Positions 12,801 through 46,795 are shown, counted from the stretch's first letter. The stretch: 64,000 nucleotides of DNA from Vitreimonas sp. (GCA_035627515.1 DASPLQ010000012.1:650331-714330); one strand, 5' to 3'. Notes: a model not told the origin generated them from the sequence alone. Numbers and translations are program-made.

Positions 12801-12854
12801 GTGCTGTTTTTTATTCCCTCAAGGTTGGTAAAAAGTAATGTGTTAAGGATCTTT

Positions 12855-16048: not shown

Positions 16049-18493
<2,445 letters not shown>

Positions 18494-18509
<16 letters not shown>

Positions 18510-19942: not shown

Positions 19943-19945
19943 AGA

Positions 19946-20710: not shown

Positions 20711-20820
20711 TACTCAATAATAGAGGATGAAGATGGCTCTAAACAATATGTAAACTCGATATGTTCGCCTTTTCTTTGTCTCGTCGTAAGTGTAAGAAAT
20801 CTGTAAGATGTGTACCAGGC

Positions 20821-23800
20821 ATGGAAAAAGATCCACGCAGGAGTATTACGTTTCTCGGCATAAGCCGCAGCAAGCGCTTGTTTGCTGTCGGTTTAATTGT
20901 GGTGGCCATAATGCTTTTTTGGTATTGGGATGAGGGAAAAGGTTTACAAGCCAATCGTTCGCAGTCCTCAACTACCAAGCTGGCAGTAGCCACTAAAAAT
21001 GATCGTTCAGAAGGTGAAGTCTTGGCTGCCGAAACCGAAATTGAAGAATCAACTGCCATGTTCCAAGTTAACATTCCTAGTCAATTTGGGGATGTCGTCA
21101 GAGTTGCTGAATTGATTGTCGAAAATCGCTCTCTTTTTGAAGGAATAGCTGAGTTTCAAGATGAAGTAGTGATGAATCAAGCCCTGGAAGTCAAGCAAGA
21201 TTTGACGGTGGGCGGCCGCTTATTATTAACTGGTGATGCGATTGGCCGGGGAGTTGATATCGATATCGAAGACGGCGCCATTACTGCGGGCACCGTCACC
21301 GCGAGCAACTTAGTGTACTCTGTCAAAGCTGGTTCGGGCATTTCAGTAAGTGGTACTCAGGATGTCACCATTTCTGCTACAGATTTGGGTTCATCCCAAC
21401 AGATTTTTAAAAATATTAAAGTGAATAGCGATACCATTACAGCTGGTAGCAACAACGATACTGTTACCTTCAAAGATGGTACCGGTATTTCTCTGACACG
21501 GTCTGGCAATGAAATTACTGTCTCCGGTCGTGACGTCAGCGGTTGGGCTAAAACCGGCAACTATGTGGCGTTAGCTGACACGAGTAATTGGGTAGGAATT
21601 GGTACCAGTACTCCAACCAATAATTTGGAAATTAACTCAGGCACAACCGGCACTTCAGGAGTTACTTTCACTCAATTGACTTCAGCTTCCACCGTGGGTG
21701 TTGGAGGTGGCAAAGTTTTATCAGTTGATTCTGGTGGCCGGATTATTTTAGTTCAGGACCAAACTGGCGACACACCTACCGCTGAATCTGTATTGCCGAC
21801 TGCAGCCAATGGTGAAACCTTATATTTTAATGGACTGAACTGGGTGGCATCTTCCAACCTGTATCACAACGGTGGACAAGTGGGCATTTCCACCACACCA
21901 GCCACTAATGTGAGATTCCATGTTTTAACGAATGCTGCCAACGCCGTCGGTGCAGTTATTCAGCGCGTCACTGGCCAAACAGCCAATTTTATGGAGTTCC
22001 GCAATGAGAGTGGCACGCCATTGTCATACGTTTCGGCTGACGGTGTCTTCCACGGCAATGTCAGTGGTGATATCAGTGGCTCCATTAATGCTGGTCTCAG
22101 TCAGGGGCAAGTGGCTTTTCAAGGAGCGTCAGCTTTGCAAGGCAGTAACTCACTGTTTTGGGATAGTGGTAATAGCCGGTTGGGAGTGGGGACGAATGCT
22201 CCCCAGAAAGCCGTTCATATTTATAATGATTCTGGGCTGTGGGTTCAAAATACTTCTGGTGGTACTGCTTTAACTTCAATTACGGGTGGGTCAGTTAACA
22301 CACTTAACTCGACAACTTTATCTTTGGGGGCTAATGCTAATACTGCTATGACATTAATGTCTAGCGGCAACGTTGGCATTGGTACCACTTCGCCAACCTC
22401 CCTCTTCCATGTTAATGGCAAAACTACAGGCAAAGCACTAGCCATTCTCAACGAAACCGGTAATCAAGATATCTTTACAGCCAGTGCCAGTGGAACTTCG
22501 ATGTTCACCATTAAGAATGATGGAAAAGTGGGGATTGGGACGACTGCACCAACAGCACTACTTAATTTAAGCTCTAGTACTAGTGATCCAACTTTAATTA
22601 TTGATCCGGGGAGTAGCTCAACTGTGGATCCTACAATTGCTCTCTATGATACTACCACCAGTGCTGGTTTTAAAATTCGTTACGATAACGATGGAGGTGA
22701 CAGTTATATTGATAGCATTTTCAACGGTACTGATACGGCTCCAGCGATACGTTTCAGAACAGAGACATCAGCGGTAACAAAAGAAGCTATGACCATTACC
22801 CATGGAGGAAGTGTCGGTATCGGCACCACCTCACCCACCTCACTCTTGCATCTTTCATCAACCTCTACTAGTTTGACCAATGGTTTATTTAAGATGGATT
22901 GGAGTCCGGCTTCAGCCACTACGTTAGCGGGTGATTTGTTTAACCTTAATATTGGCGCTAATGGTAATGCGACCAATGTTTTTAGTATCACTGATTCAGG
23001 TTCGACCTTATTCTCAGTTAGTGAAAGTAAAATTACTTCAGCTATCCCGCATGAGTTTACAGTGGCAGGTGATGTCAGTTTTGGTTATGACATTAACTTA
23101 ATTAATCAAACTGCGGGCAATATTAATAGTAATGGTCCGTTTGCGATTAACGCTGGTGAGGTCTACGAAAATGGCACGCTCACTTTGCGCACGTATAACA
23201 AAGGTCGGGTGGTGGTGGATAGTGAAGCTCTGCTCGTGAATCGGGCAGCCACTATTTCTGGAAAGTTAGTAGCTGGAACTACTAATCCTCCCGTGGCGAT
23301 TGGTCAACTGTATGTGTCGAATGCCGCCACCTATGGTAAAGCTTTAGCCATTTTGAACCAAACTGAGTCGGCTGATATTTTTGCAGCCAGTGCCAGCGGG
23401 ACAAATAGATTTGTAATTACCAGCGCAGGCAGAGTAGGTATTGGAGTTGCTGCTCCAACAAATAACTTAGAGGTGGTAGGAACAAGTAAGATTTCTAGAG
23501 ATTCCAATAGTTATATTGAGTATAACTCCTCAGGTGAAATTCAATATTATTTAAGTGGTTTTAATAAATTTAAAGTTACTAATACAGAAACCTATGCTGA
23601 AGTACTCAGAGCTCCCACTATTAATATGGTTAATAATGGTGTGACGTTAGCGGCCACTGGCTCAGTATTTACTATTTCTAATAATTCTGGTGGCATGACT
23701 GAACGATTAAGAATTACCCAAAGTGGAAGCTTTGGCATGGGCACTAATTCCCCTGATGCGCGATTATCAGTAAATGGAGATTTATCTGCCAACTCTGCCA

Positions 23801-24834
23801 CTATTAGTGGCACGTATGCTGGCAATGTTGCGCTAACCATTAATGCGCTGACTGATGCCGACAGCACCATTCGTTTGCGTGAATCAGGGACTACTAAATG
23901 GAATCTTTTCAATGATGGCGATAATTCCGATAGTTTGTACATCACCGATGCCGGTGGTGATCAAGGTGTGTTCTTGGCTCAAGATGCGACGAGTTGGGCA
24001 GCAGCTTCTGATATTACGCTCAAAGAAAATATTAATTTAGTCGATGGCTCATTGGATAAAATCAAGCAACTGCGTGGCGTGTACTATAACTTCATTGGTA
24101 CGCAGCGGACTGAAGTAGGTTTGATCGCTCAGGAAGTGCAAGCGGTGCTTCCCGAATTAGTTGTCACTAATAATAATGGCAAGTTAGCTGTCATGTACGA
24201 TCGGTTGGCACCGGTGTTAGTGAATGCAATTCAAGAACAACAAGGCCAATTGGATAAACTAGGCAACTTTTCTACCTATGAAGATCGCTTAGCCGCAGTG
24301 GAAGCACAAAATACTGAACAAGATACTGTGCTTGCTCAACTTAAAACCACCTTAAGTGATTTATTTAAAAATGCAGTCACATTCTTAGCTGATGTCACCT
24401 TCAAAGGGTATTTGAAATTTAGCCCTGATCAAACTGGCTACGTAGCTGTCCCAGTGGGTGCCACTGAGGCTAAGGTGACCTTTAAAAACAAAATGCCTTC
24501 AGAACCAATTATTAACCTGACTCCACGCCGCCTCGTAGCCGGGATGAAAGTTGGGGAAGTTAAAGATACTCATTTTATTGTCCAGTTTGAACAACCACTG
24601 GCTGAAGAACTCAGAATTGATTGGTTAGCAACCTTGAAAGATACTGAAAACAGTAATGAGCCAACCGTTGAGTTTGTGATTCCTTCCCCAGTGCCTAATC
24701 TTGTTGTCCCTGAAGCCGCGGCTGCTGAACCGGCTGCCAGCCCCACTCCGGCGCCATCTTCAACTCCTGTCCCCACCGTGGCACCTTCATCAAGTCCTGA
24801 ACCAGTAGCTAGTGAGAGTGCCGCTACACCGTAG
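20821..24834 (+). CDS. giant membrane-anchored surface repeat protein, tail-fibre-like, with S74 intramolecular-chaperone autoproteolysis motif (paralog 1)
   Basis: N-terminal type-II anchor (RLFAVGLIVVAIMLFWYW). Repeated GxVGIGTTSPTSLxHV...KALAIxNETGNQDIFTASASGT modules. At nt 24004-24260, ASDITLKENINLVDG...GLIAQEVQAVLPELVV matches the tail-spike / endosialidase S74 chaperone motif. PS-rich C-terminus. Start placed at ATG 20821. Confidence 0.7.
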   Translation: MEKDPRRSITFLGISRSKRLFAVGLIVVAIMLFWYWDEGKGLQANRSQSSTTKLAVATKNDRSEGEVLAAETEIEESTAMFQVNIPSQFGDVVRVAELIVENRSLFEGIAEFQDEVVMNQALEVKQDLTVGGRLLLTGDAIGRGVDIDIEDGAITAGTVTASNLVYSVKAGSGISVSGTQDVTISATDLGSSQQIFKNIKVNSDTITAGSNNDTVTFKDGTGISLTRSGNEITVSGRDVSGWAKTGNYVALADTSNWVGIGTSTPTNNLEINSGTTGTSGVTFTQLTSASTVGVGGGKVLSVDSGGRIILVQDQTGDTPTAESVLPTAANGETLYFNGLNWVASSNLYHNGGQVGISTTPATNVRFHVLTNAANAVGAVIQRVTGQTANFMEFRNESGTPLSYVSADGVFHGNVSGDISGSINAGLSQGQVAFQGASALQGSNSLFWDSGNSRLGVGTNAPQKAVHIYNDSGLWVQNTSGGTALTSITGGSVNTLNSTTLSLGANANTAMTLMSSGNVGIGTTSPTSLFHVNGKTTGKALAILNETGNQDIFTASASGTSMFTIKNDGKVGIGTTAPTALLNLSSSTSDPTLIIDPGSSSTVDPTIALYDTTTSAGFKIRYDNDGGDSYIDSIFNGTDTAPAIRFRTETSAVTKEAMTITHGGSVGIGTTSPTSLLHLSSTSTSLTNGLFKMDWSPASATTLAGDLFNLNIGANGNATNVFSITDSGSTLFSVSESKITSAIPHEFTVAGDVSFGYDINLINQTAGNINSNGPFAINAGEVYENGTLTLRTYNKGRVVVDSEALLVNRAATISGKLVAGTTNPPVAIGQLYVSNAATYGKALAILNQTESADIFAASASGTNRFVITSAGRVGIGVAAPTNNLEVVGTSKISRDSNSYIEYNSSGEIQYYLSGFNKFKVTNTETYAEVLRAPTINMVNNGVTLAATGSVFTISNNSGGMTERLRITQSGSFGMGTNSPDARLSVNGDLSANSATISGTYAGNVALTINALTDADSTIRLRESGTTKWNLFNDGDNSDSLYITDAGGDQGVFLAQDATSWAAASDITLKENINLVDGSLDKIKQLRGVYYNFIGTQRTEVGLIAQEVQAVLPELVVTNNNGKLAVMYDRLAPVLVNAIQEQQGQLDKLGNFSTYEDRLAAVEAQNTEQDTVLAQLKTTLSDLFKNAVTFLADVTFKGYLKFSPDQTGYVAVPVGATEAKVTFKNKMPSEPIINLTPRRLVAGMKVGEVKDTHFIVQFEQPLAEELRIDWLATLKDTENSNEPTVEFVIPSPVPNLVVPEAAAAEPAASPTPAPSSTPVPTVAPSSSPEPVASESAATP

Positions 24835-24836
24835 TT

Positions 24837-27800
24837 ATGAAGTTACCCATTTTAAAATATTGGCGTAGTCAGTACCGAACATTTTTTTTTGCGTTGTTGA
24901 CTATCTTAAGCTTAGCGATTCCAGCGTGGTACCGATTACACTCACCTAGTGATGCCCGGGCCGGTTGGTTTAATGATCAATGGCAATATCGCAAACGCAT
25001 TCCGCTAACTAATAGTGGTGGCAGTACCGTCACTGACCACCAGGTTCAATTAACTATCGATACCGCCGCGCTTGTTACCTCCGGCAAACTCCAAAGCAAC
25101 TGTGTTGACCTCCGTCTTAACGCTCAAAACACTGATTTTTTGCCATATTGGATTGAACCAGGAACGTGCAATACGACAACCACTAAAGTCTGGGTTCGTG
25201 TCCCTGAAATTCCTACCACTGGTGCAAATATTTGGCTGTACTACGGTAATCCCTCAGCGCTGGATGAATCGAGTGCGGAGCGGGTGTTTCATGCCATTCT
25301 CAAAAACCAGGCGGCAGCCTGGAATATGGATGACAATGTTTCTGGTAATGGTCAAACAATTACCGATGTTAGCGGCAATAGTCGAACAGGTACTATTGTC
25401 GGTTCAGTGAACTGTACAGGTACTGGTCAATTTGATAAAGCCTGTTCACTAACTAGTGGTGGGTATATTGATACTTTTGATACCGGACTTTCAAATCAAT
25501 TAAGTATTTCAGTATGGATTAAGCCCACTTCTGTAGCAACTGCACAAGCAATTATGGGTGAACGTTCGGGAACTAACAGCTGGGCGCTCTATGTTCGACC
25601 CACTGGGGAACTAGGATTCACTTTAAGTGGTTTATCTGATCACATTACAACCGGAGCAGGAGTGACAGCGGGAGTTTGGCAACACGTATTGGTAGTAGTT
25701 AATGGCACTAGTTTAAAAATGTATCGCAATGGAACCCTAGTCAGCGATGTCACTATGGGAGCAACAGTTGCCGACTCTAACCTAACTATGAAAATTGGTG
25801 CTGCAGGTGGTGCTACTAGTCCATATACAGGTGAGATAGATAACCTGCGTTTGTATTCACGGGCTTTCAATGCTGAAGAAATACAACAATTATTAGGCCC
25901 AACCGCAAATTCTCGATATGGATATATGACAAATAACTTGGTAGGCAATGAATTGGTTACAGGTTACAACACTAATGTTACGACTGGCTCACAACAGACT
26001 GAGGAAACAAGTCCACGGCCGATTGCAGTTTGGAATTTTGATGAGGGTAGTGGACAAACTATTAATGATGTCGTGGTGAAAAAAAATCAAGCCATGTTAG
26101 GTGCTAATAGCTCTTCGGCATCAGATGACCCTACCTGGCAAACTGAGGATATGTGTATCAGTGGTAAGTGTTTACGGTTTGATGGTACCAATGATTATGT
26201 CCAAGTGAACAATAATATTAGTACTCAAATAGGCACTGCAGTCACATTTTCGGCTTGGATTAGAACTAATTCGAGTAACAATCCGATGTCGATTATGGGT
26301 AATTACAATTCCGCGGTAGCAGGAGGACCATGGTTTGAAGTGCTGGCAGGTAAAGCGGCTTTCCATAATGGTAGTTCCGGAACTTTAAGTAGTAATAAAT
26401 CAGTTAATGATGGTAAGTGGCATCATGTGGTGGCTACAGTTGGGCCCTCCGATGCAAAGATCTATGTCGATGGCAGTTTAGATAACTCATCAACTTCTTT
26501 TTCACTTTTGAAAACATCCACAACTGCCTATGCCATTGGTGCGGTCTATGCATCTAGTGCTCCCAGTTCATTCTTTAATGGCTTCATTGATGAGCCCAAA
26601 ATTTATCCCTATGTGCGGACAGCTGCCGAAGTCAGGCAAGATTACATTCGGGGTTTAACGAGTGCAGGTGCTAATGCCGCGTTGGGTGTGCCGGAAACCA
26701 GCCATTTAAATAATGGCTTAGCAGCCTACTGGAAAATGGATGAGAGTAGCTGGAATGGGACCAGCTCGGAAGTGATTGATTCGAGTGGTAATAATAATCA
26801 CGGAACTGCGGGCTGCAATGGCGGGTGTGTGGGTTCACCTCCTAGTACTAGTACCGGTAAATTTGGCAATGCGGGTTATTTCACGGTGACAGGCAGTAAC
26901 TATCAGAGGGTTAGTGTGCCTTCTTCTAGCACTTTGCAGATCACTTCAGCAATAACGCTCTGTACTTGGGTTAATGAAGTAGGTACCAACTTTAATGGAT
27001 ATGTGCTTGATGCTAACACGTATCGTTTACAAATGAACTCTGGCGGTAGTATCGATATGCGGGTGACTACTGGCGGTGTCTCAACCGCCTCGCCAAATAG
27101 TGGTACTCTACCCACTAACACTTGGGTGCATATCTGTGGGACCTATGATGGTAGTAAGGTTAGTTTATATAGAGATGGCAGCTTAGTGGGATCAACAGCC
27201 AAAACAGGTACTATTGATACTATCAGCAGTCCAGTTATTAATAATGCTACTGGTGCAACTCGCAACTTAAAATTAGATGAATTCCGTATTTATAACCGAG
27301 CTCTTTCGCCCGCCGAAGTCCAAGATCTCTACGCGTGGACCGCTGGACCGGTGGGGCACTGGAAGTTCGATGAGGGGGAGGGTACGACTGCGAATGATGC
27401 CAGTGGCAATGGCTTAACGGGAACAATTACTTCTGGGACCCAGTGGAGTGAAGGAAGATTTGGCAGCGCACTCAATTTTGATGGGACTCAGCTAGTTCTT
27501 ATCGGTAATTCTGCTCCAGTTCAATTAGGAACGGGTACAGTAGAAGCCTGGATCAAAACCACTAATGCCGGTAGTTCTTTCCGTGGTATCGTAGTTAAGC
27601 AAAACGCCTATGGCATGTTTTTAAATGATAATGTGTTCGGAAGCTATGATTGGGGAGGGACTGGTTTTAATAGTAGTGGCTTAAGTCTTAATGATGGTCA
27701 ATGGCATCATGTCAGTATGACTTTTGATGGCAGTAATAGTACCACCAACTTATATCTTGATGGTACTTTGGTTGACACAGGCAATAACACTGTCTCAGGT

Positions 27801-29981
27801 CATAACACGAGTTTGAGTATTGGGTCCGGTACTGGTGGAGTTAGTCAGACTTTTATTGGCAAAATTGATGATGTTAAACTCTACAACTACGTTCGGACCA
27901 GAGAACAAGTTTTGTTGGATATTAAAGCCAACCGGCCGGCCGCATTGGGGGCACAGGATTCGGTTCCGCCTCCACTTGCCCACTGGAAGTTTGATGAAGG
28001 TAATGGTACCAGTAACGCCGATAGCAGCGGGAATGGCTATACCCTAACTATGGAAAACTCTGAAGGTGATGAGTGGGCGAGTGGCAAATTAGGCTCAGGC
28101 CTACAGTTTGATCGTAATAATGAGCGAGCAGCTCGGGCGGATACCACAGGCTCACCTTTTGATTTAACTCAAGGCACTCTTTCTGCTTGGGTATATCGGA
28201 CTGGACAAGTAAGTGGTTCGGGCAATCAGGGGCGGATTATTAGTAAAGCTGATTTATATGTGCTATTTCTCAATAGTGATGAAGAAGTTCAGTGTTATGG
28301 CAATGGGAGTACCTTGGATTCAAACTACGTCTTACCTCTTAATCAATGGTCACATGTGCTGTGTACGCAAGATTCAGCGAGTACAACTAAAACCCGTAAA
28401 ATTTATGTTAATGGCGTAGAAGTTGCTTCAAGTACCCCAGCTAGTGCGTGGAGTGTTGATAATAATCCTTTGACAGTTGGTAATTATTTTACTGATGGCT
28501 ACTTTTTCCCTGGTTACATCGATGAAGTTAAAATGTGGAACATACCTTTGAATACCGATCAGATTGCGTATGAAGCTAATATCCGATCTGCTGACGTGCT
28601 TGCTTATCAGGCAACCAGTACCGAACAAACTCAAGATGTTGGTTCCAGTAATCCGCCAATAGGTGAGTGGAATTTTGATGAAATGACAGGTGCTACAGCC
28701 AATGATCTCGGGGCAAATGGCTTTGATGGCACGATTACTAACGCAACTTGGGTGCCTGGCCAAATTGGTGGCGCACTCGATTTTGCTGGTAATGCTTGTG
28801 TGTCTACTTCGACTTCTTCAACTCTCAACCCTACTTCCACTATGACGGTGGAAACGTGGGTGTATCTAAATGCCAATCAAGGTTCGTTTGCTTCATTAAT
28901 TTCACGAGATGGCGAATCGGCAGCGCGGGCGTATTCAATAGAACTAGGTAATGCCGGTACGAATCGTTTGAGAGTGTGGTTTGGCGCCGGTGGCAGTCCC
29001 AAAGTAGTTGATTCTACTTCGGCTTTGGCCCTCAACCAGTGGTACCACATTGTGGGGACCTATGATGGCTCTAGTGTGAAGTTGTACATCAATGGCAGAT
29101 TAGATAACAGTTTAAGCACTTCCGGCACGATCACTACTAACACTGACACTTTAGCATTTGGCTGTAGCAGCCAACTCAATGGCGAGTACTTCAACGGTAA
29201 GCTCGATCACGTCAAAATCTACAACTACGCTCGCAGTCAAGCTCAAGTGGCCTATGATTACAACCGCGGTAAACCAATTGCGCACTGGAAAATGGATGAG
29301 TGTCAGGGGACTACAATTTATGATGCTTCGGGAAATAATAATCATGGCACGTTAACAGTCACCGGCCAATCAGTGGGAACCTGTGACACTAGTTCCACAG
29401 CTTGGGGTAGCGGGGCGACAGGAAAATATAATGCTAGCATTAACTTAGATGGTACTGGAGATGAAATTAGCATAGGAGATCCAAGTTCAGGTATTTTTGA
29501 CTTTGGTACTCGAGACTTTACATTAAGTGCGTGGGTCAAAACAACAAGCGGCGAACAAAGCATTATCTCAAAGCAAATAGCTAACACCTGGAACGGTTAC
29601 AATTTTTACATTATGCCTGATGGTAAATTAATTAGCAGTGTTTCCTGGCTTAATAATGGCGCAACCAGTTCTATCACCAGCACCAATAGTGTGAATGACG
29701 GAACATGGAAACATGTGGTGTTTGTCATGAATGGGGCTGATAGAACAAACTGGAAACTCTATATCAATGGTCAAGCTGACAGTTTTACTGAAGCAGGGTC
29801 AGATTTATCAGGTACTGGTATTGATAATACTGTCCCCCTAAGAATTGGTAATCGTGAATATAACGATGCCACTGACTTTATTGGCCAAATCGACGACGTC
29901 AAAGTCTTCAATTACGCTCTCTCTACCGCCCAAGTTCGCAAAGAGTACAACGCGGGGTCAGCGATTTATTTTGGTAATTAA
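24837..29981 (+). CDS. 1714-aa secreted protein: DUF2341-like N-domain followed by about 7 tandem LamG (concanavalin-A-like) domains
   Basis: N-terminal TM/signal. VWVRVPEIPTTGANIWLYYGNP resembles DUF2341. Seven LamG C-terminal beta-strand signatures: IDNLRLYSRAFNAEEIQQL, IDEPKIYPYVRTAAEV, LDEFRIYNRALSPAEVQDLY, IDDVKLYNYVRTREQV, IDEVKMWNIPLNTDQI, LDHVKIYNYARSQAQV, IDDVKVFNYALSTAQV. Confidence 0.7.
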   Translation: MKLPILKYWRSQYRTFFFALLTILSLAIPAWYRLHSPSDARAGWFNDQWQYRKRIPLTNSGGSTVTDHQVQLTIDTAALVTSGKLQSNCVDLRLNAQNTDFLPYWIEPGTCNTTTTKVWVRVPEIPTTGANIWLYYGNPSALDESSAERVFHAILKNQAAAWNMDDNVSGNGQTITDVSGNSRTGTIVGSVNCTGTGQFDKACSLTSGGYIDTFDTGLSNQLSISVWIKPTSVATAQAIMGERSGTNSWALYVRPTGELGFTLSGLSDHITTGAGVTAGVWQHVLVVVNGTSLKMYRNGTLVSDVTMGATVADSNLTMKIGAAGGATSPYTGEIDNLRLYSRAFNAEEIQQLLGPTANSRYGYMTNNLVGNELVTGYNTNVTTGSQQTEETSPRPIAVWNFDEGSGQTINDVVVKKNQAMLGANSSSASDDPTWQTEDMCISGKCLRFDGTNDYVQVNNNISTQIGTAVTFSAWIRTNSSNNPMSIMGNYNSAVAGGPWFEVLAGKAAFHNGSSGTLSSNKSVNDGKWHHVVATVGPSDAKIYVDGSLDNSSTSFSLLKTSTTAYAIGAVYASSAPSSFFNGFIDEPKIYPYVRTAAEVRQDYIRGLTSAGANAALGVPETSHLNNGLAAYWKMDESSWNGTSSEVIDSSGNNNHGTAGCNGGCVGSPPSTSTGKFGNAGYFTVTGSNYQRVSVPSSSTLQITSAITLCTWVNEVGTNFNGYVLDANTYRLQMNSGGSIDMRVTTGGVSTASPNSGTLPTNTWVHICGTYDGSKVSLYRDGSLVGSTAKTGTIDTISSPVINNATGATRNLKLDEFRIYNRALSPAEVQDLYAWTAGPVGHWKFDEGEGTTANDASGNGLTGTITSGTQWSEGRFGSALNFDGTQLVLIGNSAPVQLGTGTVEAWIKTTNAGSSFRGIVVKQNAYGMFLNDNVFGSYDWGGTGFNSSGLSLNDGQWHHVSMTFDGSNSTTNLYLDGTLVDTGNNTVSGHNTSLSIGSGTGGVSQTFIGKIDDVKLYNYVRTREQVLLDIKANRPAALGAQDSVPPPLAHWKFDEGNGTSNADSSGNGYTLTMENSEGDEWASGKLGSGLQFDRNNERAARADTTGSPFDLTQGTLSAWVYRTGQVSGSGNQGRIISKADLYVLFLNSDEEVQCYGNGSTLDSNYVLPLNQWSHVLCTQDSASTTKTRKIYVNGVEVASSTPASAWSVDNNPLTVGNYFTDGYFFPGYIDEVKMWNIPLNTDQIAYEANIRSADVLAYQATSTEQTQDVGSSNPPIGEWNFDEMTGATANDLGANGFDGTITNATWVPGQIGGALDFAGNACVSTSTSSTLNPTSTMTVETWVYLNANQGSFASLISRDGESAARAYSIELGNAGTNRLRVWFGAGGSPKVVDSTSALALNQWYHIVGTYDGSSVKLYINGRLDNSLSTSGTITTNTDTLAFGCSSQLNGEYFNGKLDHVKIYNYARSQAQVAYDYNRGKPIAHWKMDECQGTTIYDASGNNNHGTLTVTGQSVGTCDTSSTAWGSGATGKYNASINLDGTGDEISIGDPSSGIFDFGTRDFTLSAWVKTTSGEQSIISKQIANTWNGYNFYIMPDGKLISSVSWLNNGATSSITSTNSVNDGTWKHVVFVMNGADRTNWKLYINGQADSFTEAGSDLSGTGIDNTVPLRIGNREYNDATDFIGQIDDVKVFNYALSTAQVRKEYNAGSAIYFGN

Positions 29982-29989
29982 GCTTTCCT

Positions 29990-32071
29990 TTGCAGTACTT
30001 ACCTAATCTGTTACTATGGATACAGATGTCAACCGTGGATTCATTTACCCAGCGCGTCATGAACATGATTCTGCCAGCAATGGCGATCATAGTCCCGATA
30101 GTGTTTGTGCCGCTGAGCACAGATTTTTTTACCACCAGTAAAAAAATAGTGTTATTGGTGGTGGCTTCGGTAGCAATTTTGGCTTGGACATGGCGCGGAG
30201 TGCTACGTAAAAAATTTGATTTTTATATCAGTCCAGCCACGGCGCCACTCATTATTTTGTGCATTTTATATGGTGTTTCGACGGCGTTTAGAGCCCCCAA
30301 CTTTTGGCTAGCATTAACTGGTGAAACGACACTTTTTTTAACATTAAGTGTGATTTTTTTAACGGTAACGGCTCTTTTAAAAGAGCAGGCGGTGTTAGTC
30401 CGTACCTATCACTCGTTATTACTCTCTGCCTCTGTTGTGTCCCTGATTGTGATACTGCAATTTTTTAAAATTGGCCAGTTACTGACAGCAGTTCCTTGGT
30501 TAGAAACGCCGTTATTTAATCCCACTGGTGGTCCGCTCACCTTTTTATCTCTCAGTGTGCCTCTCATTGCAGCCAATGCTGCTTTCTTGTATCGTCACCA
30601 GCCACGGCCAAAGCCATTTTATTTTCTGACGACCTTATTATTGGTGGTTGCCTCGTTATTAACAGTGGCTTTATTAGTGATGGAAAAGTTGCAACTAATG
30701 CCGTTGACTGCAGCCTGGGTGATTGGAATCGGGGCCTTACAAAATCCTGGAGTGGCATTATTGGGAACAGGTCCCGGCACCTATGCCGATGTTTATACGC
30801 AGCTTAAACCGGCTTTTATGAACATGACGCCCACTTGGAATGTGGTTTTTTCTAGTTCAGTTAATTATTTCTTTCAACTACTCACTACGGTTGGGTTACC
30901 CGCAGTAGCTTTATATTTATATGCCTTAGGGAGCACTCTCGCAGCCGCCAGCCGCCAGCTCACGAAAAACCGATGGCTCAAAGTTTACACGGCTTTGCTA
31001 CTTAGTTGCGTGGGAATGCAACTCATTTTGCCTCCCAACTTAATGTTAATGTTGATAGTGTTCATCAGTTTGAGTTTAGTGACAATTGAGTTAAAAATAA
31101 CTCAGCTCTCTGCAACCCTTAATCCTTTGCAGAGTAGTGCGGCCCAGATGTTGGGAGCGCCGCGGCGCTTTTGGGAGCAACGATTTGGGGCACATGAACA
31201 AAAATTAAGCTTGTTGTTTTGGTTTATGGGTTTGGTGATTACTGGCGGAGTGCTTTTTTATAATTACGTCCTGGCCCGCGCCTATGCCAGTGAGATAGTT
31301 TTTTATCGCTCTTTGCAAGCCGCGGATCAAAACAATGGCACCGCCGTTTATAACCTTCAAGTCCAAGCCATTAACTTAAAACCATATGAGCCCCAGTATC
31401 ATTTGGCATATGCTCAAACGAATCTCGCGTTAGCTGAGTCATTGGCAGCAAAAAGTGAGGTTAATGATCAAGACAAAGCCACTATTACCCAATTAATTGA
31501 ACAAGCTATCCGAGAAGCTAAAACTGCGGTGCAGTTACAACCGACCAATAGTTTGGCGTGGCAAAACCTAGCGGCTATTTATCGGCAACTGATTGGTTTA
31601 GCTGATGGAGCAGATGAATGGACATTGACGGCTTATCAACAGGCTATAGCCTTAGATCCTAGTAATCCTCAGCTACGCCTAGATTTGGGTGGAGTTTTTT
31701 ATTCGGTAAAAAATTATGGTGAAGCTGTAGGCTACTTTACCCAAGCCGCTCAACTTAAACCCGACTGGGCTAATGCCTATTACAACTTAGCAATGGCGTA
31801 TCGCGATGGCGGAGAGCCGCAACTAGCAGTCCAAGCCATGCGTGTAGTAGCCGAACTCATTGATCCTACGAGTACCGAGTATCAACAAGTGCAAACAGAG
31901 CTCAAAGCTTTAGAAGCTGATTTGCCGACAGAAATAACCCCACCTCAGCCTTTACCAGTCAGTGATGACACAGAAGAGGAAGAAGTACTCACGAAGCCTT
32001 CACCATTGCCTTCACCTACTTTGAAAGAGGAAATCGAACTTCCGGCTGATGTAGCCCCAAATTCACCCTAA
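29990..32071 (+). CDS. O-antigen-ligase-like (Wzy_C) polytopic membrane protein with C-terminal TPR repeats
   Basis: At least 10 TM helices, with a periplasmic-loop GIGALQNPGVALLGTGPG. C-terminal TPR-like repeats (AYYNLAMAYRDGG, LAWQNLAAIYRQL). Confidence 0.6.
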   Translation: MQYLPNLLLWIQMSTVDSFTQRVMNMILPAMAIIVPIVFVPLSTDFFTTSKKIVLLVVASVAILAWTWRGVLRKKFDFYISPATAPLIILCILYGVSTAFRAPNFWLALTGETTLFLTLSVIFLTVTALLKEQAVLVRTYHSLLLSASVVSLIVILQFFKIGQLLTAVPWLETPLFNPTGGPLTFLSLSVPLIAANAAFLYRHQPRPKPFYFLTTLLLVVASLLTVALLVMEKLQLMPLTAAWVIGIGALQNPGVALLGTGPGTYADVYTQLKPAFMNMTPTWNVVFSSSVNYFFQLLTTVGLPAVALYLYALGSTLAAASRQLTKNRWLKVYTALLLSCVGMQLILPPNLMLMLIVFISLSLVTIELKITQLSATLNPLQSSAAQMLGAPRRFWEQRFGAHEQKLSLLFWFMGLVITGGVLFYNYVLARAYASEIVFYRSLQAADQNNGTAVYNLQVQAINLKPYEPQYHLAYAQTNLALAESLAAKSEVNDQDKATITQLIEQAIREAKTAVQLQPTNSLAWQNLAAIYRQLIGLADGADEWTLTAYQQAIALDPSNPQLRLDLGGVFYSVKNYGEAVGYFTQAAQLKPDWANAYYNLAMAYRDGGEPQLAVQAMRVVAELIDPTSTEYQQVQTELKALEADLPTEITPPQPLPVSDDTEEEEVLTKPSPLPSPTLKEEIELPADVAPNSP

Positions 32072-32131
32072 AAATTCGCCTTTTCTTTGTCTCGCGGTGA
32101 GTGTAAGAACTCTGTAAGATGTGTACCAGGC

Positions 32132-35100
32132 ATGGAAAAAGATCCACGCAGGAGTATTACGTTTCTCGGTTTAAGCCGCAGCAAGCGCTTGTTTGCTGTC
32201 GGTTTAATTGTGATGGCAGGAATAGCATGGTGGTCGATCCGACCAAACAGGCTTCTCGAGCCCAGTGGTGATCAATTGGCAGTCGCACAGGGAAAAAGCG
32301 TAGGCTCTGGTCGAGTTCTAGGTACTGACACCGAAGAGATTACCCCAGCCACGTTTCAAGTCCAAGTGGCGACAGTGTTCTCAGATGTGGTGAGGATCGC
32401 AGAGTTGAGTGTGGCAGAAGGTTCAGTGTTTGCAGGGCTGGCTGAGTTTCAAGATGAAGTCATCATGCGCGCCAATGCTGAAGTAAGAGGTGATTTAACA
32501 GTTGGTGGGCGGTTAATTTTGAATGATGATGCGTTTGGCAATGACATTGATATCGATATCGAACAAGGCACCATCACTGCTGGCACCGTCACCGCCGATA
32601 ACTTAGTCTACTCAGTTAAAGCTGGCTCGGGCATTTCGGTCAGTGGCACACAGGACGTGACTATTTCCGCCACTGATTTAGGTTCTTCGCAAAAGATTTT
32701 TAAAAACGTTAAAGTCAATAGTGACACCATTACAGCAGCCAATAATGAAGACACCCTCACCCTCAAAAATGGTTCTGGTGTTAACTTATCTCGATCCGGC
32801 AATGAAATTACTTTTGCCAGCGATAACATTAGTGGCTGGGTGCGCTCAGGTAGTTATGTGGCCTTGGTAGATGCTACCACTTCCGTAGGTATTGGGACCG
32901 CTACCCCCACCAATAAACTGGAAATCAATTCCGGTACCACTCACACTTCTGGTCTCACCTTTAGTCAAATGACGTCTGCCTCTACGGTCGGGGTTGGGGG
33001 CGGTAAAGTATTGTCAGTCGATTCTGGTGGCCGAGTGATTTTAGTGCAGGACCAAACGGGTGACACTCCCGATGCAGAATCAGTTTTGCCTTCTACAACT
33101 ACTGGTGGCACCTTATATTTCAATGGCCTGAACTGGGTAGGCAGCACCAATCTCTATCACAATGGTGGTCAAGTGGGTATTTCCACTACACCTGCTGCCA
33201 ACTCACGTTTTCATGTTCTAACGAATGCCGTGGATAAGGTTGGGGCAGTGATTCAGCGCGTTGTTTCTCAGACGGCAAATTTGTTAGAGTTTCGTGATGA
33301 AAATGGTAATGCGCTGAGTTATTTTGATGAAGAGGGCGTTTATCATGGTGAAGCAGAGTTAACGGGCTCGATTACTGGCTCTATTAACCCTGGTTTAGTC
33401 CAAGGACAAGTAGCTTATCAAGGAGCTTCTGCTTTGGCTGGTAGCAACTCATTATTTTGGGATGCTGGTAACTCGCGCTTAGGGATTGGAACTAATGGGC
33501 CTTCTTCTCAGTTACACCTCAACTCAAGTACAGACGGGACAACTACTGGCATTACTTTAGCTAGCCAATACAACACGCTCAAGCTGTATGGCCGAGGTAA
33601 CTCACCAGCTAGCTCAGTTATCGAATCGAGCGGGAGCTTTCCAGGAATCACTTTTAGAACTGGTTCTAGTCCTGCTGATCGTATGTACTTAGATCTGGTT
33701 GGTAAATTAGCACTAGGGCACACTTCACCAGTGGGCTTATTTGATGTCAGTGGCAAGGTCACCGGTAAAGCTCTAAATATTCTTAACGAAACCGGTAACC
33801 AAGATATTTTCACCGCCTCGGCTTCAGGAACTTCACGGTTCACGATTAAGAATGATGGGAGTGTGGGTGTAGGCACAGTGAGTCCAAGTCAGGCCCTACA
33901 TGTAGTTGGTAATTTAGCCGTCGAAGGTGTGGAAACTGGGACAGGAGGCATAGCTGAAAATAGTGGACGCATTAGAGTTGGGAATCGAACTAATGGAGGT
34001 GTGACCACGAAATACTTAGAAATGTGGAGTAACTGGGATACCCCTGTTATTCAAAGTGTTGGATATGGGCAGCCCTTATCTATCACTTCATCAACTGGTC
34101 GAATAAGCATGAATCCTATTAGCTCAGGGGGTACGGCCACTAATTCGAACAATATGATTTTTTTGAGAGTGGGTCATGGGGCAGGGAGTACGAGTAACGT
34201 CAGTCCGGCAATAGCTGGTTCAGGAGGGCTTGGTGTCTGGGCCAGTGATATTAACTCTAGTTTACTGATTATTGATACTTCAACAGCTGGGCATAATCGC
34301 CCTCTGATTGAAGCCAGCGAGGCAACGGTATCTCGTCTCTATTTGCATCAGGATGGTCGGTTAGGTCTCAATAACAGTTCACCAACTGGCACCTTACACG
34401 TTGTGACTGGTTCAACAGCTGGTAAAGCATTGACAATTTTTAATGAAACCGGTGATCAGAATATTTTGACTGCTTCAGCCTCCGGTACCACGCGGATGGT
34501 TTTAACTAATAATGGGCTGTTAGGAGTGGGAACAACTTCTCCGACTTCCAGAGTCCACGTTCAAGGGGATTTAGCCGTGACCGATGGATCTGGTAATCCA
34601 GGTATACTGAGAATTGGTACCAATGAAAAAGGCCTCCTGTATTTGACTGGTAGTACCTTAGCTCTTCAAAGTAATAATTATCCTATTACTATTCAATCAA
34701 TCGGAGGTGCTTTTGGTGGATATATTCGTTTCAATCTAGGTGGAACTGAAGCCATGAGATTAACAAGCGCCGGGAATTTTGGCATTGGAACTACCGCTGC
34801 AACTTCGCCACTACATGTTAACGCTGGGTATGGCTCAAATGCCTTGGCTGCTTTCAATCAACTCAATGGTGGTGACATTCTGACAGCTAGCGCCAGTGGT
34901 ACTACCCGGATGGTGTTAAGTAATGCTGGGCGGTTGGGATTAAACACTCTTACTCCAGGCGCCTTAGGTGATTTTGCCGCTCCTACGAGTACGGTTGGTT
35001 TGATTGTTAGAGCTACTGCTTCCGGCGGACAGAATGCTCAAGAGTGGTACAACAATGGTAATTCTTTAACAGCGGCTGTTAACAATCAAGGTAGCTTTTA

Positions 35101-36394
35101 TACTGGCAGTTGTGCAGCAGTAGGAACTTCAAGTCTATGTGGCTCGCAATTGGCAGTGGTATCAGGTAGTCCAACTCGACCTGGTATTAGTGTGAGCGGT
35201 GCTTCAGGCCAATCCGCAGCACTTTTAAGCTTAACCGGAGCTGGCACCATTGCCGCAGGTACTAGTACCTACATGAACCTGGATCTTTCTGGTTTAGTGC
35301 TTACAACCAACAATCCTACTATTAATGGTTTTAATATTAGTAATATTCCTACTGGCAGCGGCGTAGAAACCGCGATTAAAGTGGGTACCGGTTGGGATGT
35401 AGCGGCAACTTTTGCGTCAGGCAACATTGGTTTGGGCACCAGTACGTTTGGAACGTCGGCTGATAAAGTGCTGGCCATTGCCGGCTCTACTGCGCCCAGC
35501 TCAGCGATCACTGATGGCATTCAACTCTTTGCTGTTGATCAAAGTGGCAGCCACGAGTTGAGAGTTATGGACGAAGCTGGAAATATCACTACGCTTTCAC
35601 CTCACAATTTCAGTTTAATTCCTGAAGGCCGTAGTGAGGATCTAGCTTGGAGTTTTTACTCAGAGCGTAATGGCTTAGCGATTAATGCTGATATGACCAA
35701 AGCCTTGCGGTTGGTAGAAAAACTGAGTGGTGAGCAATTAATTTACTTAAAAGATCTAGACACTAATCAGGACGTCACCCCGACATTTACTCAGGAGTTG
35801 CCTAGCGCTCAAACGCTTTTAGCTGAAGGAGAAATTCCGGCCGTAGCTCGTTGGAGTTATCAATTATGGAGCTTCATTGGTGAAGTGGTATTTGAAAAAC
35901 CAGCACGCTTTTTAGCCTCAGTAGTATTTGAGAATGACGTCAAAGTGGAAGGTTTCATTGAGCAGAGTCCAGCCGCAGCAGGTTGGGCAGAAATAAAGGC
36001 CGGTGACGGTGAAGTGAAAGTCACGTATGCCCAAGCTTACCCCGCACAGCCTGTACTGACTGTGACTCCCACGAAGAGTGGCGTAAAGTATCAACTGGTA
36101 GATGAAACCACCACTGGCTTTACAATTAAACTCGAAGCACCCGCCGCTCAGCTCGAACGCTTTGCATGGCAGGCACAATTTATTACCAGTCCCCAAACCA
36201 CCACTAGTAATGGGGGAAGTAGCCCATCACCTTCACCCACAGCTAGTTCCAGTCCCAGCCCCAGCCCGAGCTCAGCCCCAGTCATTGCCTCGCCATCACC
36301 GACCCCACTTGTCTCACCTGAGCCGAGTCCTAGCTCCCAGCCGGATGCAACTCCAGAGCCGACAGCCAGTGATTCAGCGGGGCTGAGTGAATAA
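32132..36394 (+). CDS. giant membrane-anchored surface repeat protein, tail-fibre-like (paralog 2)
   Basis: 5' leader and first roughly 470 codons nearly identical to the gene at 20821; the rest is divergent but has the same VG(I/V)GT...KAL(N/T)I(L/F)NETGxQxI(F/L)TASASGT repeat family. PS-rich C-terminus. Start placed at ATG 32132. Confidence 0.7.
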   Translation: MEKDPRRSITFLGLSRSKRLFAVGLIVMAGIAWWSIRPNRLLEPSGDQLAVAQGKSVGSGRVLGTDTEEITPATFQVQVATVFSDVVRIAELSVAEGSVFAGLAEFQDEVIMRANAEVRGDLTVGGRLILNDDAFGNDIDIDIEQGTITAGTVTADNLVYSVKAGSGISVSGTQDVTISATDLGSSQKIFKNVKVNSDTITAANNEDTLTLKNGSGVNLSRSGNEITFASDNISGWVRSGSYVALVDATTSVGIGTATPTNKLEINSGTTHTSGLTFSQMTSASTVGVGGGKVLSVDSGGRVILVQDQTGDTPDAESVLPSTTTGGTLYFNGLNWVGSTNLYHNGGQVGISTTPAANSRFHVLTNAVDKVGAVIQRVVSQTANLLEFRDENGNALSYFDEEGVYHGEAELTGSITGSINPGLVQGQVAYQGASALAGSNSLFWDAGNSRLGIGTNGPSSQLHLNSSTDGTTTGITLASQYNTLKLYGRGNSPASSVIESSGSFPGITFRTGSSPADRMYLDLVGKLALGHTSPVGLFDVSGKVTGKALNILNETGNQDIFTASASGTSRFTIKNDGSVGVGTVSPSQALHVVGNLAVEGVETGTGGIAENSGRIRVGNRTNGGVTTKYLEMWSNWDTPVIQSVGYGQPLSITSSTGRISMNPISSGGTATNSNNMIFLRVGHGAGSTSNVSPAIAGSGGLGVWASDINSSLLIIDTSTAGHNRPLIEASEATVSRLYLHQDGRLGLNNSSPTGTLHVVTGSTAGKALTIFNETGDQNILTASASGTTRMVLTNNGLLGVGTTSPTSRVHVQGDLAVTDGSGNPGILRIGTNEKGLLYLTGSTLALQSNNYPITIQSIGGAFGGYIRFNLGGTEAMRLTSAGNFGIGTTAATSPLHVNAGYGSNALAAFNQLNGGDILTASASGTTRMVLSNAGRLGLNTLTPGALGDFAAPTSTVGLIVRATASGGQNAQEWYNNGNSLTAAVNNQGSFYTGSCAAVGTSSLCGSQLAVVSGSPTRPGISVSGASGQSAALLSLTGAGTIAAGTSTYMNLDLSGLVLTTNNPTINGFNISNIPTGSGVETAIKVGTGWDVAATFASGNIGLGTSTFGTSADKVLAIAGSTAPSSAITDGIQLFAVDQSGSHELRVMDEAGNITTLSPHNFSLIPEGRSEDLAWSFYSERNGLAINADMTKALRLVEKLSGEQLIYLKDLDTNQDVTPTFTQELPSAQTLLAEGEIPAVARWSYQLWSFIGEVVFEKPARFLASVVFENDVKVEGFIEQSPAAAGWAEIKAGDGEVKVTYAQAYPAQPVLTVTPTKSGVKYQLVDETTTGFTIKLEAPAAQLERFAWQAQFITSPQTTTSNGGSSPSPSPTASSSPSPSPSSAPVIASPSPTPLVSPEPSPSSQPDATPEPTASDSAGLSE

Positions 36395-36444
36395 TTCAGC
36401 TGCTGCTTGACCCTCTAGATGTTTCTCGTCAGAATAGAGGGGCT

Positions 36445-37170
36445 ATGAATGAACAGCCTCTCATTACTCCTGTCACCGCTCCAAAGAAGAAATTAGCGTG
36501 GAAGACCTTGATTTTTAGAGGTTTATTTTTGATTCTTGTTGTCGCTCTCGCTGCTACCGCATATCTCTATTATCAAACCCGTCAGGAGATTACGTACTTA
36601 ACTACTGAAGCTGGTCAGCAAGAAATGGCTCGTCGCGAAGTAGAAGCTGTCACCAGTCGTTTGAAAAAATTAACCATTTTGCCAGAAGAAGATCCAGTCG
36701 TGGCCACCATTCTCGATCCTGATTACTTAGCTTCTCAATCTGCTTTTTACCAGAAGTCTGAAAAAGGTGACAAACTGGTGGTCTATCCTCAAGCGCAAAA
36801 AGCTTACATTTATAGTCCTGGTCGGGATCTGATCGTCAATGCCGGTCCGCTGATTGTGCAGCCAGAAGAGGGCGTGGAACAGACTTCGCCAGCTGAAAAA
36901 GTGAGTATTGAAGTCCGCAATGGTTCTAATCAAGCCGGGGCAGGTACAGCTTTTTCCCAGCAACTCAACCAAGACGTCTTTACTGTCACCCAAGTGCGCG
37001 ATGCAGCCAATAAAAATTATACTGAAACCTTAATTGTTGTCCGCGACGCTGATATCACCGATGACTCTTTGAGTGGTATAGCTCAGGCCACCAATGGCCG
37101 AATTGTGCGGGAATTGCCAAGTGGTGAAACTGCTTCCACGGCCCAAATTGTGGTCATTATTGGTGGTTAA
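36445..37170 (+). CDS. LytR_C (LytR/CpsA/Psr C-terminal) domain membrane protein
   Basis: N-terminal TM anchor. C-terminus VSIEVRNGSNQAGAGTAFSQQLNQDVFTVTQVRDAANKNYTETLIVV...IVVIIGG matches the LytR_C domain pattern. Confidence 0.7.
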   Translation: MNEQPLITPVTAPKKKLAWKTLIFRGLFLILVVALAATAYLYYQTRQEITYLTTEAGQQEMARREVEAVTSRLKKLTILPEEDPVVATILDPDYLASQSAFYQKSEKGDKLVVYPQAQKAYIYSPGRDLIVNAGPLIVQPEEGVEQTSPAEKVSIEVRNGSNQAGAGTAFSQQLNQDVFTVTQVRDAANKNYTETLIVVRDADITDDSLSGIAQATNGRIVRELPSGETASTAQIVVIIGG

Positions 37171-46712: not shown

Positions 46713-46795
46713 GGAGAGGTCGCATAGTGGCCTAGTGCAGCGGTTTACTAAACCGCCGTTCGCAAGAACCGGGGGTTCGAATCCCCCCCTCTCCG
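46713..46795 (+). tRNA. type-II (Ser-like) tRNA with apparent anticodon ACT
   Basis: GGAGAGG/CCTCTCC acceptor stem. D-arm identical to the tRNA-Ser(TGA) at 6554. Anticodon arm GCGGT-TTACTAA-ACCGC (U33 A34 C35 U36 A37). Long variable arm, GGTTCGAATCC T-loop and discriminator G. Confidence 0.6.

Follow-up and report, generated by a model that had tools for sequence, protein, structure and literature searches.

Gene content and origin of the locus

We analysed a 64,000-nucleotide stretch of DNA (hereafter, the window), which is part of a 1.41-Mb contig deposited as "Vitreimonas sp." (GCA_035627515.1, DASPLQ010000012.1:650331-714330) and which carries, within about 16 kb, five consecutive plus-strand genes for putative envelope proteins. 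Two giant, fibre-like paralogs flank a giant protein with LamG domains and a polytopic membrane protein with tetratricopeptide repeats (TPRs), and a small membrane protein closes the series. The five open reading frames (ORFs) are separated by intergenic gaps of 2-60 nt, and the four large genes sum to 5164 aa. An initial annotation, made from the DNA alone, had called the same five genes at coordinates that are borne out exactly by the ORF calls, and the domains it had named (S74, DUF2341, seven copies of LamG, TPR, and LytR_C) were all recovered in a Pfam scan, which covered 34 ORFs of the window (21 of the 49 window ORFs of at least 150 aa lay outside it). Tails rich in proline, serine, and threonine (P/S/T), which had been ascribed to all of the proteins, are present on only three of the five, namely both fibres and the TPR protein. 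The combined share of these residues in the last 60 aa is 0.50 in paralog 1, 0.67 in paralog 2, and 0.37 in the TPR protein, and it amounts to 0.15 in the LamG giant and 0.20 in the LytR_C protein, which have no such tail. The features of the locus are as follows:

20764-20820 (+): fibre leader box 1 (TTCGCCTTTTCTTTGTCTCG...), a candidate promoter or regulatory element directly upstream of paralog 1
20821-24834 (+): fibre paralog 1, S74 type, 1337 aa, with the start MEKDPRRS (maximal ORF from 20761)
24007-24162 (+): S74 chaperone/autoprotease core of paralog 1 (Pfam Peptidase_S74, aa 1063-1114)
24837-29981 (+): N-terminally anchored LamG giant, 1714 aa (Pfam DUF2341 and Laminin_G_3)
29990-32071 (+): WaaL-fold (Wzy_C superfamily) TPR protein, 693 aa, assigned through homologues, profile, and fold; TTG start, 12 aa shorter in the NCBI version
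32075-32131 (+): fibre leader box 2, beginning 4 nt past the stop codon of the WaaL-TPR gene
32132-36394 (+): fibre paralog 2, non-S74 type, 1420 aa, assigned through paralogy, PDB 8OND, and PHROG
35399-35896 (+): NS74 module of paralog 2 (aa ~1090-1255), conserved in homologues
36445-37170 (+): small membrane protein, 241 aa (Pfam LytR_C; homologues follow fibre genes)

The Vitreimonas label, which denotes an alphaproteobacterium, looks wrong, and we take it as a mislabel, since the gene content and the named relatives of the genes point to a chromosome of the Microgenomates (OP11), that is, of the Patescibacteria or Candidate Phyla Radiation (CPR). Among the relatives of the window's genes are Collier-, Ames-, Beckwith-, Roizman-, Woese-, Levy-, Gottesman-, and Shapirobacteria, together with metagenome-assembled genomes (MAGs) named generically as "Patescibacteria group". 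Many related MAGs bear the labels "uncultured Gammaproteobacteria/Pseudomonadales", which are apparently wrong. Within the best 80 of at least 404 relatives of the TPR protein, nearly all are Microgenomates, generic Patescibacteria, or obviously mislabelled, and one is assigned to WWE3; the relatives of a c-subunit-like protein encoded next to the locus likewise come from Microgenomates lineages. The locus is flanked by an F1-type ATPase operon on one side and by genes for an HD hydrolase, an M48 peptidase, and DsbA on the other, and its G+C content is flat throughout.

Two fibre proteins with homology to phage tail fibres and MAT adhesins

As judged from sequence and profile comparisons, both fibre proteins share homology with phage tail fibres and with the mosaic adhesive trimer (MAT) fibres of Bdellovibrio. 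In phmmer searches, paralog 1 matched the MAT protein Bd2133 (PDB 8OND) with an E value of 3e-8 and paralog 2 matched it with 1.5e-11, in an alignment that passes exactly through the KALxIxNE...ASASGT...GIGTTxP repeat module; other MAT fibre structures (8OML, 8ON4, and 8OJN) followed at E values of 1e-4 to 1e-3. PHROG tail-fibre families match the giants down to an E value of 6e-28, with paralog 2 at 8.5e-13, next to matches to PHROG "virion structural protein" families. The tail-fibre likeness noted in the initial annotation is thus upheld by PHROG families and by MAT fibre structures alike. A tblastn search with the fibre protein gave weak matches to 593 phage records, and the phage similarity is confined to aa ~820-1160 (~330 aa) at no more than 29% identity, with no phage covering 80% of the protein.

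The two paralogs resemble each other in their first ~600 aa (63% identity) and in a C-terminal domain, with weaker matches between repeats in the interior. Paralog 1 begins with a basic cytoplasmic tail and a transmembrane (TM) helix at aa ~20-38, which are followed by a conserved N-module (~91-460) and a beta-helix shaft with MAT-like repeats (~513-1040). Behind the shaft lie the S74 domain (1063-1114), a helical stretch, a beta-sandwich (~1204-1272), and the P/S/T tail (~1288-1337). Paralog 2 has a TM anchor and an N-module like those of paralog 1, a different shaft, the NS74 module, the C-terminal domain (~1256-1365), and a P/S/T tail. Both N-termini read MEKDPRRSITFLG.SRSKR and then continue into a hydrophobic helix, and the basic tail and helix also occur in close homologues. 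This arrangement corresponds to a positive-inside signal-anchor and therefore places most of the fibre protein outside the cell, so that the fibres are predicted to be type II membrane-anchored proteins with the N-terminus inside. No LPXTG-type sortase motif was found in either fibre.

The architecture of the fibre family was derived from 14 close homologues. The N-module aligned in 12 to 13 of the 14 homologues, has no Pfam match over its ~370 aa, and was found at full length and in the same position in ~20 cluster representatives among 1.84 billion proteins (exhaustive HMMER search), indicating that few proteins belong to the fibre family proper. Least conserved of all is the shaft, which is variable and built from GIGTxxP and KALxIxNE...ASASGT units. 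Concerning the repeat module that the initial annotation had described for both paralogs, short G[IV]G[TV]xxP motifs do recur (7 and 5 copies), and the full KALxIxNE...ASASGT modules number just 2 and 3. A ~90-aa end domain is present in all 14 homologues and a P/S/T-rich tail in most of them; this C-terminal domain could be aligned in 12 to 13 of the 14.

Between shaft and end domain, the family carries one of two mutually exclusive modules: S74 in six of the 14 homologues and NS74 in seven, with a single protein (P0003) having neither. In paralog 1, Peptidase_S74 (PF13884) scored an E value of 2e-14 (54 bits at a cut-off of 22) over model positions 1-57 of 58, and the domain also gave a fold match, at 29% identity, to the MyRF ICA domain. 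The Ser-Lys dyad motif SDxxxK is intact (SDITLK, aa 1063-1068), with a predicted cleavage site just before Ser1063. The NS74 module (~165 aa) is the best-conserved part of the fibre protein, with 56-73% identity between genomes and a mean column identity of 74% across seven sequences, and has no relative in Pfam or the PDB. A degenerate S74 domain was ruled out as its origin by profile comparison (hhalign probability 0.4%). In an AlphaFold2 (AF2) model of aa 1040-1337 of paralog 1 (298 aa; mean predicted local distance difference test [pLDDT] score of 64), the S74 part reaches a pLDDT of 70-86, the helices at aa ~1126-1181 are modelled at low confidence, the end domain forms a six-strand sandwich at 90-95, and the P/S/T tail is disordered.

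A seven-LamG giant and a WaaL-fold protein with TPRs

The gene between paralog 1 and the TPR gene encodes a protein with a signal-anchor at aa 16-34, a DUF2341 domain at aa 88-153 (Pfam E value 4.5e-16), and seven LamG/concanavalin-like domains at aa 162-1692. Laminin_G_3 matched it in seven stretches (Pfam E value 2e-182), and exactly seven units can be delimited by WxFDE...IDxxKxY motifs; LamG-type matches in the PDB include 4QVS and 5HON. The equivalent protein in a distant Microgenomates locus (L008) is 30% identical over ~1190 aligned columns, gaps included. The sole loose match to a sortase signal is IPTTG at aa 125, which is not C-terminal. Two other identities were considered and set aside. 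The haloarchaeal fimbrial subunit TafC (NF052521) scored 233 bits against a cut-off of 410 in seven partial stretches, and since this score is spread over the LamG repeats, it reflects shared LamG content only. A type IV pilus-like component was rejected as well, with no prepilin-type signal seen by eye at the N-terminus.

The TPR protein consists of ~11 TM helices (aa 23-424) with an external loop (aa 231-302), a TPR region (aa ~450-643, of which Pfam matched aa ~500-640), and a proline-rich tail. K51, N278, and W283 are invariant. Loops on the N-terminal side hold 13 Lys and Arg residues and those on the other side hold 4, which together with the 11 TM helices places the GTGPGTY loop, the TPRs, and the proline-rich tail, by prediction, outside the cell. 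The tail carries the motif P[LI]PSPxxxxx[IL]ELP ahead of a variable P/T-rich end (31934-32068 in the window; homologues P0059-P0066). Eight of 20 homologues hit Pfam Wzy_C (best E value 7e-19), and the family profile matched a canonical Wzy_C protein encoded elsewhere in the window with 86.6% probability and an E value of 4.5e-6 (hhalign). The predicted fold is of the WaaL type, polytopic with a large extracytoplasmic loop. With at least 404 relatives, this WaaL-like/TPR gene is widespread among Microgenomates, and our literature search found no description of WaaL-TPR proteins in Microgenomates or the CPR.

The canonical Wzy_C protein just mentioned (415 aa, 55897-57144, minus strand, E value 3e-14) keeps the catalytic His and has no TPR, and its gene lies close to a BacA undecaprenyl-diphosphatase gene (58237-59034, plus strand). 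The presence of both in the window indicates that lipid-linked glycan assembly exists independently of the TPR protein.

A small membrane protein is a conserved partner of the fibres

The last gene of the locus encodes a protein with a TM helix at aa 21-39, a fibre-associated ~110-aa domain (aa ~24-141), and a LytR_C domain (aa 153-240, E value 4e-7); it has no NCBIfam hit and no PDB relative. Homologues lie directly after fibre genes in loci L001 and L002-L004 and 37 nt after an S74 fibre gene in L006; in L087, one lies ~0.3 kb from a weakly fibre-like ORF, and in L005, ~6 kb from a fibre gene. The matches in L001, L006, and L087 cover no more than the N-terminal TM segment plus the ~110-aa domain, suggesting that LytR_C is an optional addition. 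The initial annotation had named the protein after its LytR_C domain, which is indeed present, while the part that travels with the fibres is the N-terminal domain. From these neighbourhoods we conclude that the small TM protein is a conserved fibre partner. A role as LCP wall-polymer ligase was ruled out, as Pfam detected only the accessory LytR_C domain and no catalytic LCP domain (PF03816).

A shared leader box and recurring gene order point to two adjoining modules

The 143-nt blocks at 20764-20906 and 32075-32217, which comprise the 57-nt leader and the first 29 codons of each fibre gene, are 95% identical, compared with 43-85% further into the coding DNA. The core 20-mer of the box has two sites in the 64 kb, with zero expected. 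Related boxes lie upstream of fibre genes in L001 (4991 and 9817) and L002 (5593)/L003, and in three genomes fibre genes are preceded, at a distance of 55-185 nt, by the consensus TTTCGCnTyTTTTynGTCT.... Either gene conversion or a regulatory function could account for the conserved block; when the locus was scanned for sigma-70 promoters, the outcome was no better than chance, with 21 sites versus 28 expected from shuffles. The second leader box implies a second transcription unit, and we conclude from the DNA that the locus probably consists of two adjoining units, one with fibre 1, the LamG giant, and the WaaL-TPR gene, and the other with fibre 2 and its small partner.

Recurrence of the gene order in relatives, which the initial annotation had proposed as a check, is observed for the first of these units: the triad of fibre-repeat giant, DUF2341/LamG giant, and WaaL-TPR gene has the same order in L008 and L054, two distant Microgenomates loci, in which the anchor protein is only ~32% identical to that of the window. 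The WaaL-TPR neighbourhood was sampled in 80 loci, taken from the best 80 of the relatives counted above. LamG giants precede the TPR gene in L043 and L062 and, partially, in L033; fibre-like ORFs lie upstream of it in L010, L031, L059, L069, and L070 and downstream in L083 and L087, so that about ten of the sampled loci other than L008 and L054 hold a partial combination. The order of the second unit, a fibre gene and then a small TM protein, recurs in L001, L002-L004, and L006. In L001, three fibre genes stand in tandem ahead of the small partner; neither a LamG nor a TPR gene intervenes, and no F1 operon lies within the stretch examined. At least five related genomes show the same placement next to the F1 operon as the window, and in L002, L005, L090, and L091 the fibre genes stand head-to-head with that operon. 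AbiEii toxin-family genes adjoin fibre genes in L005 (8960-9595) and L090 (9021-9797 and 19740-20432).

The locus as a proposed source of surface adhesins

With moderate confidence, we read the region as a chromosomal cell-envelope locus encoding surface adhesins. The proteins would be exported in a Sec-dependent manner, with their N-terminal anchors staying in the membrane, and both fibres would presumably be trimeric and beta-helical. Trimer folding would proceed from the C-terminal side, guided by S74 in fibre 1 and presumably by NS74 and the end domain in fibre 2. Fibre 1 would then cut itself before Ser1063, which would leave a mature anchored fibre and free a C-terminal piece. The LamG giant, with seven lectin-like domains on a membrane anchor, would likely be a glycan-binding adhesin, and long fibres and seven-LamG protein, once displayed, would bind glycans on a partner cell or surface. 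As for the WaaL-fold protein, it would most likely act on the outer side of the membrane, where it would transfer or handle a glycan linked to undecaprenyl; its outward TPRs would hold an extended protein or polymer partner, and the P/S/T tails of the fibres, which are probably glycosylatable, would be candidate acceptors.

Several observations weigh against parts of this reading. Fibre genes of close relatives, in one to three copies, occur without a LamG or TPR gene (L002, L005, L090, and L091). An ORF of at least 1000 aa is found in only 28 of the 80 sampled WaaL-TPR loci and lies upstream on the same strand in 17; as most of these loci have no giant nearby, the adjacency of the WaaL-TPR gene could be positional and not functional. 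Each half of the locus matches a separately recurring module, which makes a single dedicated apparatus doubtful. Of the dedicated adhesion or host-attachment apparatus proposed in the initial annotation, we infer adhesion as a plausible function, and the single apparatus gives way to a junction of two modules. The AF2 model is monomeric and cannot show trimerisation. In the fibres, it is the shaft that varies, next to a conserved C-terminal domain; in MATs and in phage fibres, variability resides in the tips. Moreover, S74 cleavage would strip the lectin-like C-terminal domain from fibre 1, a poor fit with a model in which the tip binds the target.

The remaining counterarguments concern the WaaL-fold protein. 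Its own sequence gives no Pfam Wzy_C (PF04932) hit at E values up to 10, so that the "Wzy-like" designation of the initial annotation holds only through homologues, profile comparison, and predicted fold. An external-loop His is essential in WaaL and PglL, as known from mutagenesis. The residue aligned with the His of the H-[NS]-x-x-L motif in the canonical Wzy_C protein of the window is Val291, and among the WaaL-TPR family HN is kept only in the most distant member (P0080), the others having S, A, F, Y, N, T, P, V, or G at the His position. Since the essential His is missing, catalysis is probably altered or absent, and the protein may not be a ligase at all. The missing His also stands against O-glycan transfer to the P/S/T tails in the manner of PglL/PilO, for which the tails on three proteins, the outside TPRs, and BacA provide circumstantial evidence; we regard such a transfer as doubtful.

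Among the alternatives to adhesion, a structural role deserves the most attention, even if we consider it unlikely. The fibres would then form a coat or wall-spanning scaffold, similar to a surface layer (S-layer) that provides integrity, spacing, or cohesion, fixed on a secondary wall polymer that the WaaL-like protein ligates or polymerises. Conservation of both fibre ends with a shaft that alone is variable would suit such a scaffold, as would the near-core status of the WaaL-TPR gene in Microgenomates. In the annotated loci L006 and L008/L009, a LysM/M23 wall peptidase is encoded close downstream of that gene, and minus-strand ORFs of ~360 aa are similarly placed in other WaaL-TPR loci. 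The LytR_C domain of the small partner is typical of wall-polymer ligase proteins, the LamG match 4QVS is annotated as an S-layer-domain protein, and P/S/T-rich segments are the classic wall-spanning linkers of monoderms. However, the nearest characterised relatives, MATs and phage fibres, are target-binding devices, the fibre family is rare (the ~20 full N-module cluster representatives in 1.84 billion proteins), and one to three fibre copies per genome are ill-suited to a core layer. Nor did Pfam detect an SLH or other known S-layer anchoring domain.

It is less probable still that the locus serves nutrition by capturing polysaccharides or particles, with LamG domains as carbohydrate-binding modules, fibres as tethers to glycans of plants or microbes, and secreted glycoside hydrolases in a cellulosome-like arrangement. 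A GH44 glycoside hydrolase gene (52915-54870, minus strand) does lie in the window, the protein encoded at 14779-16026 (minus strand) has a weak dockerin-like match, Pel9A-like beta-helix and dockerin-like proteins are encoded near fibre genes in L001 and L091, GH172/GH39 genes adjoin the triad in L008, and the LamG match 5HON is a module of an extracellular arabinanase. Yet the hydrolase genes of the window are 6-16 kb or more away in other transcription units, no cohesin was found, the dockerin match (E value 3e-5) is near the cut-off, and the S74/NS74 fibres are explained no better than by cell adhesion. A prophage or tailocin remnant, in which fibre genes would be left without cellular function, might be invoked to account for the PHROG tail-fibre and virion structural matches, the 593 weak phage records, and the AbiEii genes beside fibre genes in L005 and L090. 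Against it stand the restriction of phage similarity to aa ~820-1160 at no more than 29% identity, the N-terminal membrane anchors and the non-phage N-module, the long and intact ORFs, the F1-side position kept in at least five genomes, and the flat G+C content. With no integrase, capsid, terminase, sheath, tube, or baseplate domain in the 34 scanned ORFs, and with a chromosomal setting between housekeeping genes, this explanation is essentially refuted, in agreement with the "not a prophage" verdict of the initial annotation. Surface adhesion remains the explanation that we favour.

The neighbouring F1-type operon and other genes of the window

Head-to-head with paralog 1 lies an F1-type operon (16049-20710, minus strand), in which a c-like gene comes first and is followed by alpha, gamma, beta, and epsilon. 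Its first gene is listed here as context and is probably outside the fibre system:

19946-20710 (-): c-subunit-like protein, 254 aa, head-to-head with paralog 1

This protein has a signal peptide, a ~150-aa ectodomain, and a hairpin of two helices, in which the GRNPLA loop and Asn233 are invariant. The hairpin is c-like and lacks the ion-binding carboxylate, the ring carboxylate aligning to Ile or Leu. All five PDB profile matches are weak (E values 0.4-1.8); in four of them, the hairpin aligns with an ATP-synthase c subunit. The family comprises at least 264 clusters, all named ones being Microgenomates or Patescibacteria, and 10 of 120 listed homologues of these carry the JGI label "ATP synthase subunit c". 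In five loci, giant ORFs that precede the WaaL-TPR gene also contain the ectodomain of the c-like protein. We considered the 254-aa protein as a fibre partner and now assign it to the ATPase operon, though in L036 and L083 its homologues adjoin WaaL-TPR and fibre genes.

All four F1 subunits score below NCBIfam cut-offs (alpha 395/554, beta 442/463, gamma 55/194, and epsilon 39/67) and also score on models of the Mycoplasma F1-like ATPase. No gene for an a, b, delta, or normal c subunit is visible in this operon, which by its gene content may encode a non-canonical ATPase. In Mycoplasma mobile, an F1-like ATPase powers the giant surface "legs". Because the fibre genes are kept beside the F1 operon across genomes, it is tempting to speculate that a re-purposed rotary ATPase, with a c-like ring bearing an ectodomain, could be coupled to the surface fibres or act as their export or assembly motor; we consider this very improbable.

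Elsewhere in the window, a sortase gene (9037-9735, minus strand) lies next to a 370-aa ORF without Pfam match (9707-10819, minus strand). A flavin mononucleotide (FMN) riboswitch (12633-12779, plus strand; 82 bits at a cut-off of 66) is located directly upstream of a gene for an EamA-family transporter (12801-13787, plus strand), which is likely a riboflavin importer. Five of the six tRNA genes of the window (2037-55740) are tRNA-Ser genes, one of them with the unusual anticodon ACT (46713-46796) besides one with GCT. The window further encodes a CARDB-domain protein (44803-45963, minus strand) and an 812-aa GT2 glycosyltransferase (6587-9025, plus strand).

Implications and comparison with known systems

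Host recognition by ultra-small CPR/Patescibacteria cells is largely unknown outside Saccharibacteria, and we know of no cultured representative of the Microgenomates. The locus ties this group by sequence to MAT fibres, which alone among bacterial tail-fibre-like adhesins have solved structures and support from experiments. Tentatively, we propose that phage-fibre modules were domesticated by CPR bacteria, as they were by Bdellovibrio, to serve as fibres for host recognition, which we hold to be much likelier than a coupling of the fibres to the ATPase. Should the proteins of the locus indeed recognise hosts, they might offer a means of predicting or capturing the hosts of uncultured Microgenomates. 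The S74 self-cleaving fibre, its non-S74 sister with the conserved module, the lectin-like end domain, and the seven-LamG protein are expressible targets. In addition, the analysis defines a widespread uncharacterised family, with a WaaL fold, predicted external TPRs, and no catalytic His, and a candidate cis element before fibre genes. We found no published description of this combination of genes, the parts being of known kinds, and no paper linking CPR bacteria with tail-fibre-like adhesins. The view that this is not a described system, as the initial annotation had it, is consequently tenable for such fibres in the CPR, whereas the fibre type itself has a described relative in MAT.

Among known systems, the WaaL-fold protein is closest, at 13% sequence identity, to the WaaL/Wzy_C superfamily, which includes PglL/PilO and the Gram-positive S-layer O-oligosaccharyltransferases. 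It differs from WaaL by one extra TM helix after the WaaL-like core, which would put the TPRs and the proline-rich tail outside. The LamG giant resembles DUF2341/LamG giants of Patescibacteria and archaea, in which a DUF2341 head likewise precedes LamG_3 repeats and which have been reported as candidate adhesins in Patescibacteria (PMC11809585; PMC12911398). Its recurrent place between a fibre gene and the WaaL-TPR gene is specific to this giant. With phage fibres and tailspikes that carry S74 at the C-terminus (endosialidase K1F/NF and T5 pb1), paralog 1 has in common the S74 domain with its Ser-Lys dyad and the PHROG tail-fibre match; in contrast to them, it is predicted to be membrane-anchored, lies outside any virion, and has extra conserved domains after the chaperone. 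MYRF cleavage releases the N-terminal part of that protein, whereas cleavage of paralog 1 would free a C-terminal fragment.

The closest likeness is to the MATs, a 21-member family of trimeric, phage-tail-fibre-like surface adhesins of Bdellovibrio bacteriovorus, among whose named members are Bd2133, Bd3182, and Bd2439 (Caulton et al., Nat Microbiol 2024, PMC10769870). MATs are surface fibres by experiment, Bd2439 binds glycans, and the conserved N-terminal domain is thought to sit on the predator's surface; 13 of the C-termini are S74 domains (SDxxxK), and 8 are other tips (PMC10769870). The fibres described here share with them a homologous beta-helix repeat module, present in both paralogs, as well as the organisation as a multi-copy paralogous family with S74 and non-S74 subtypes and a conserved cell-proximal N-terminal part, and the window holds one fibre of each subtype. 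Carriers of both live on other bacteria, which has been shown for Bdellovibrio and is presumed for the CPR. There are also differences. The host here is a monoderm-type CPR bacterium, whereas Bdellovibrio is a predator of the diderm type. For anchoring, the fibres have a TM helix, predicted to stay uncleaved, and a ~370-aa N-module, where MATs have a signal peptide and a ~130-aa beta-rich domain. S74 is internal, with ~220 aa after it (helical stretch, beta-sandwich, and P/S/T tail), and is described as terminal in MATs; the non-S74 replacement is one conserved 165-aa module, compared with the diverse tips reported for MATs. Genes for a LamG giant and a WaaL-TPR protein accompany the fibre genes, a neighbourhood not encountered in the MAT description consulted here. 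Because they diverge from MATs in defining features such as the variable C-terminal tip, we set these fibres apart from MAT proper, as a variant of that kind of fibre.

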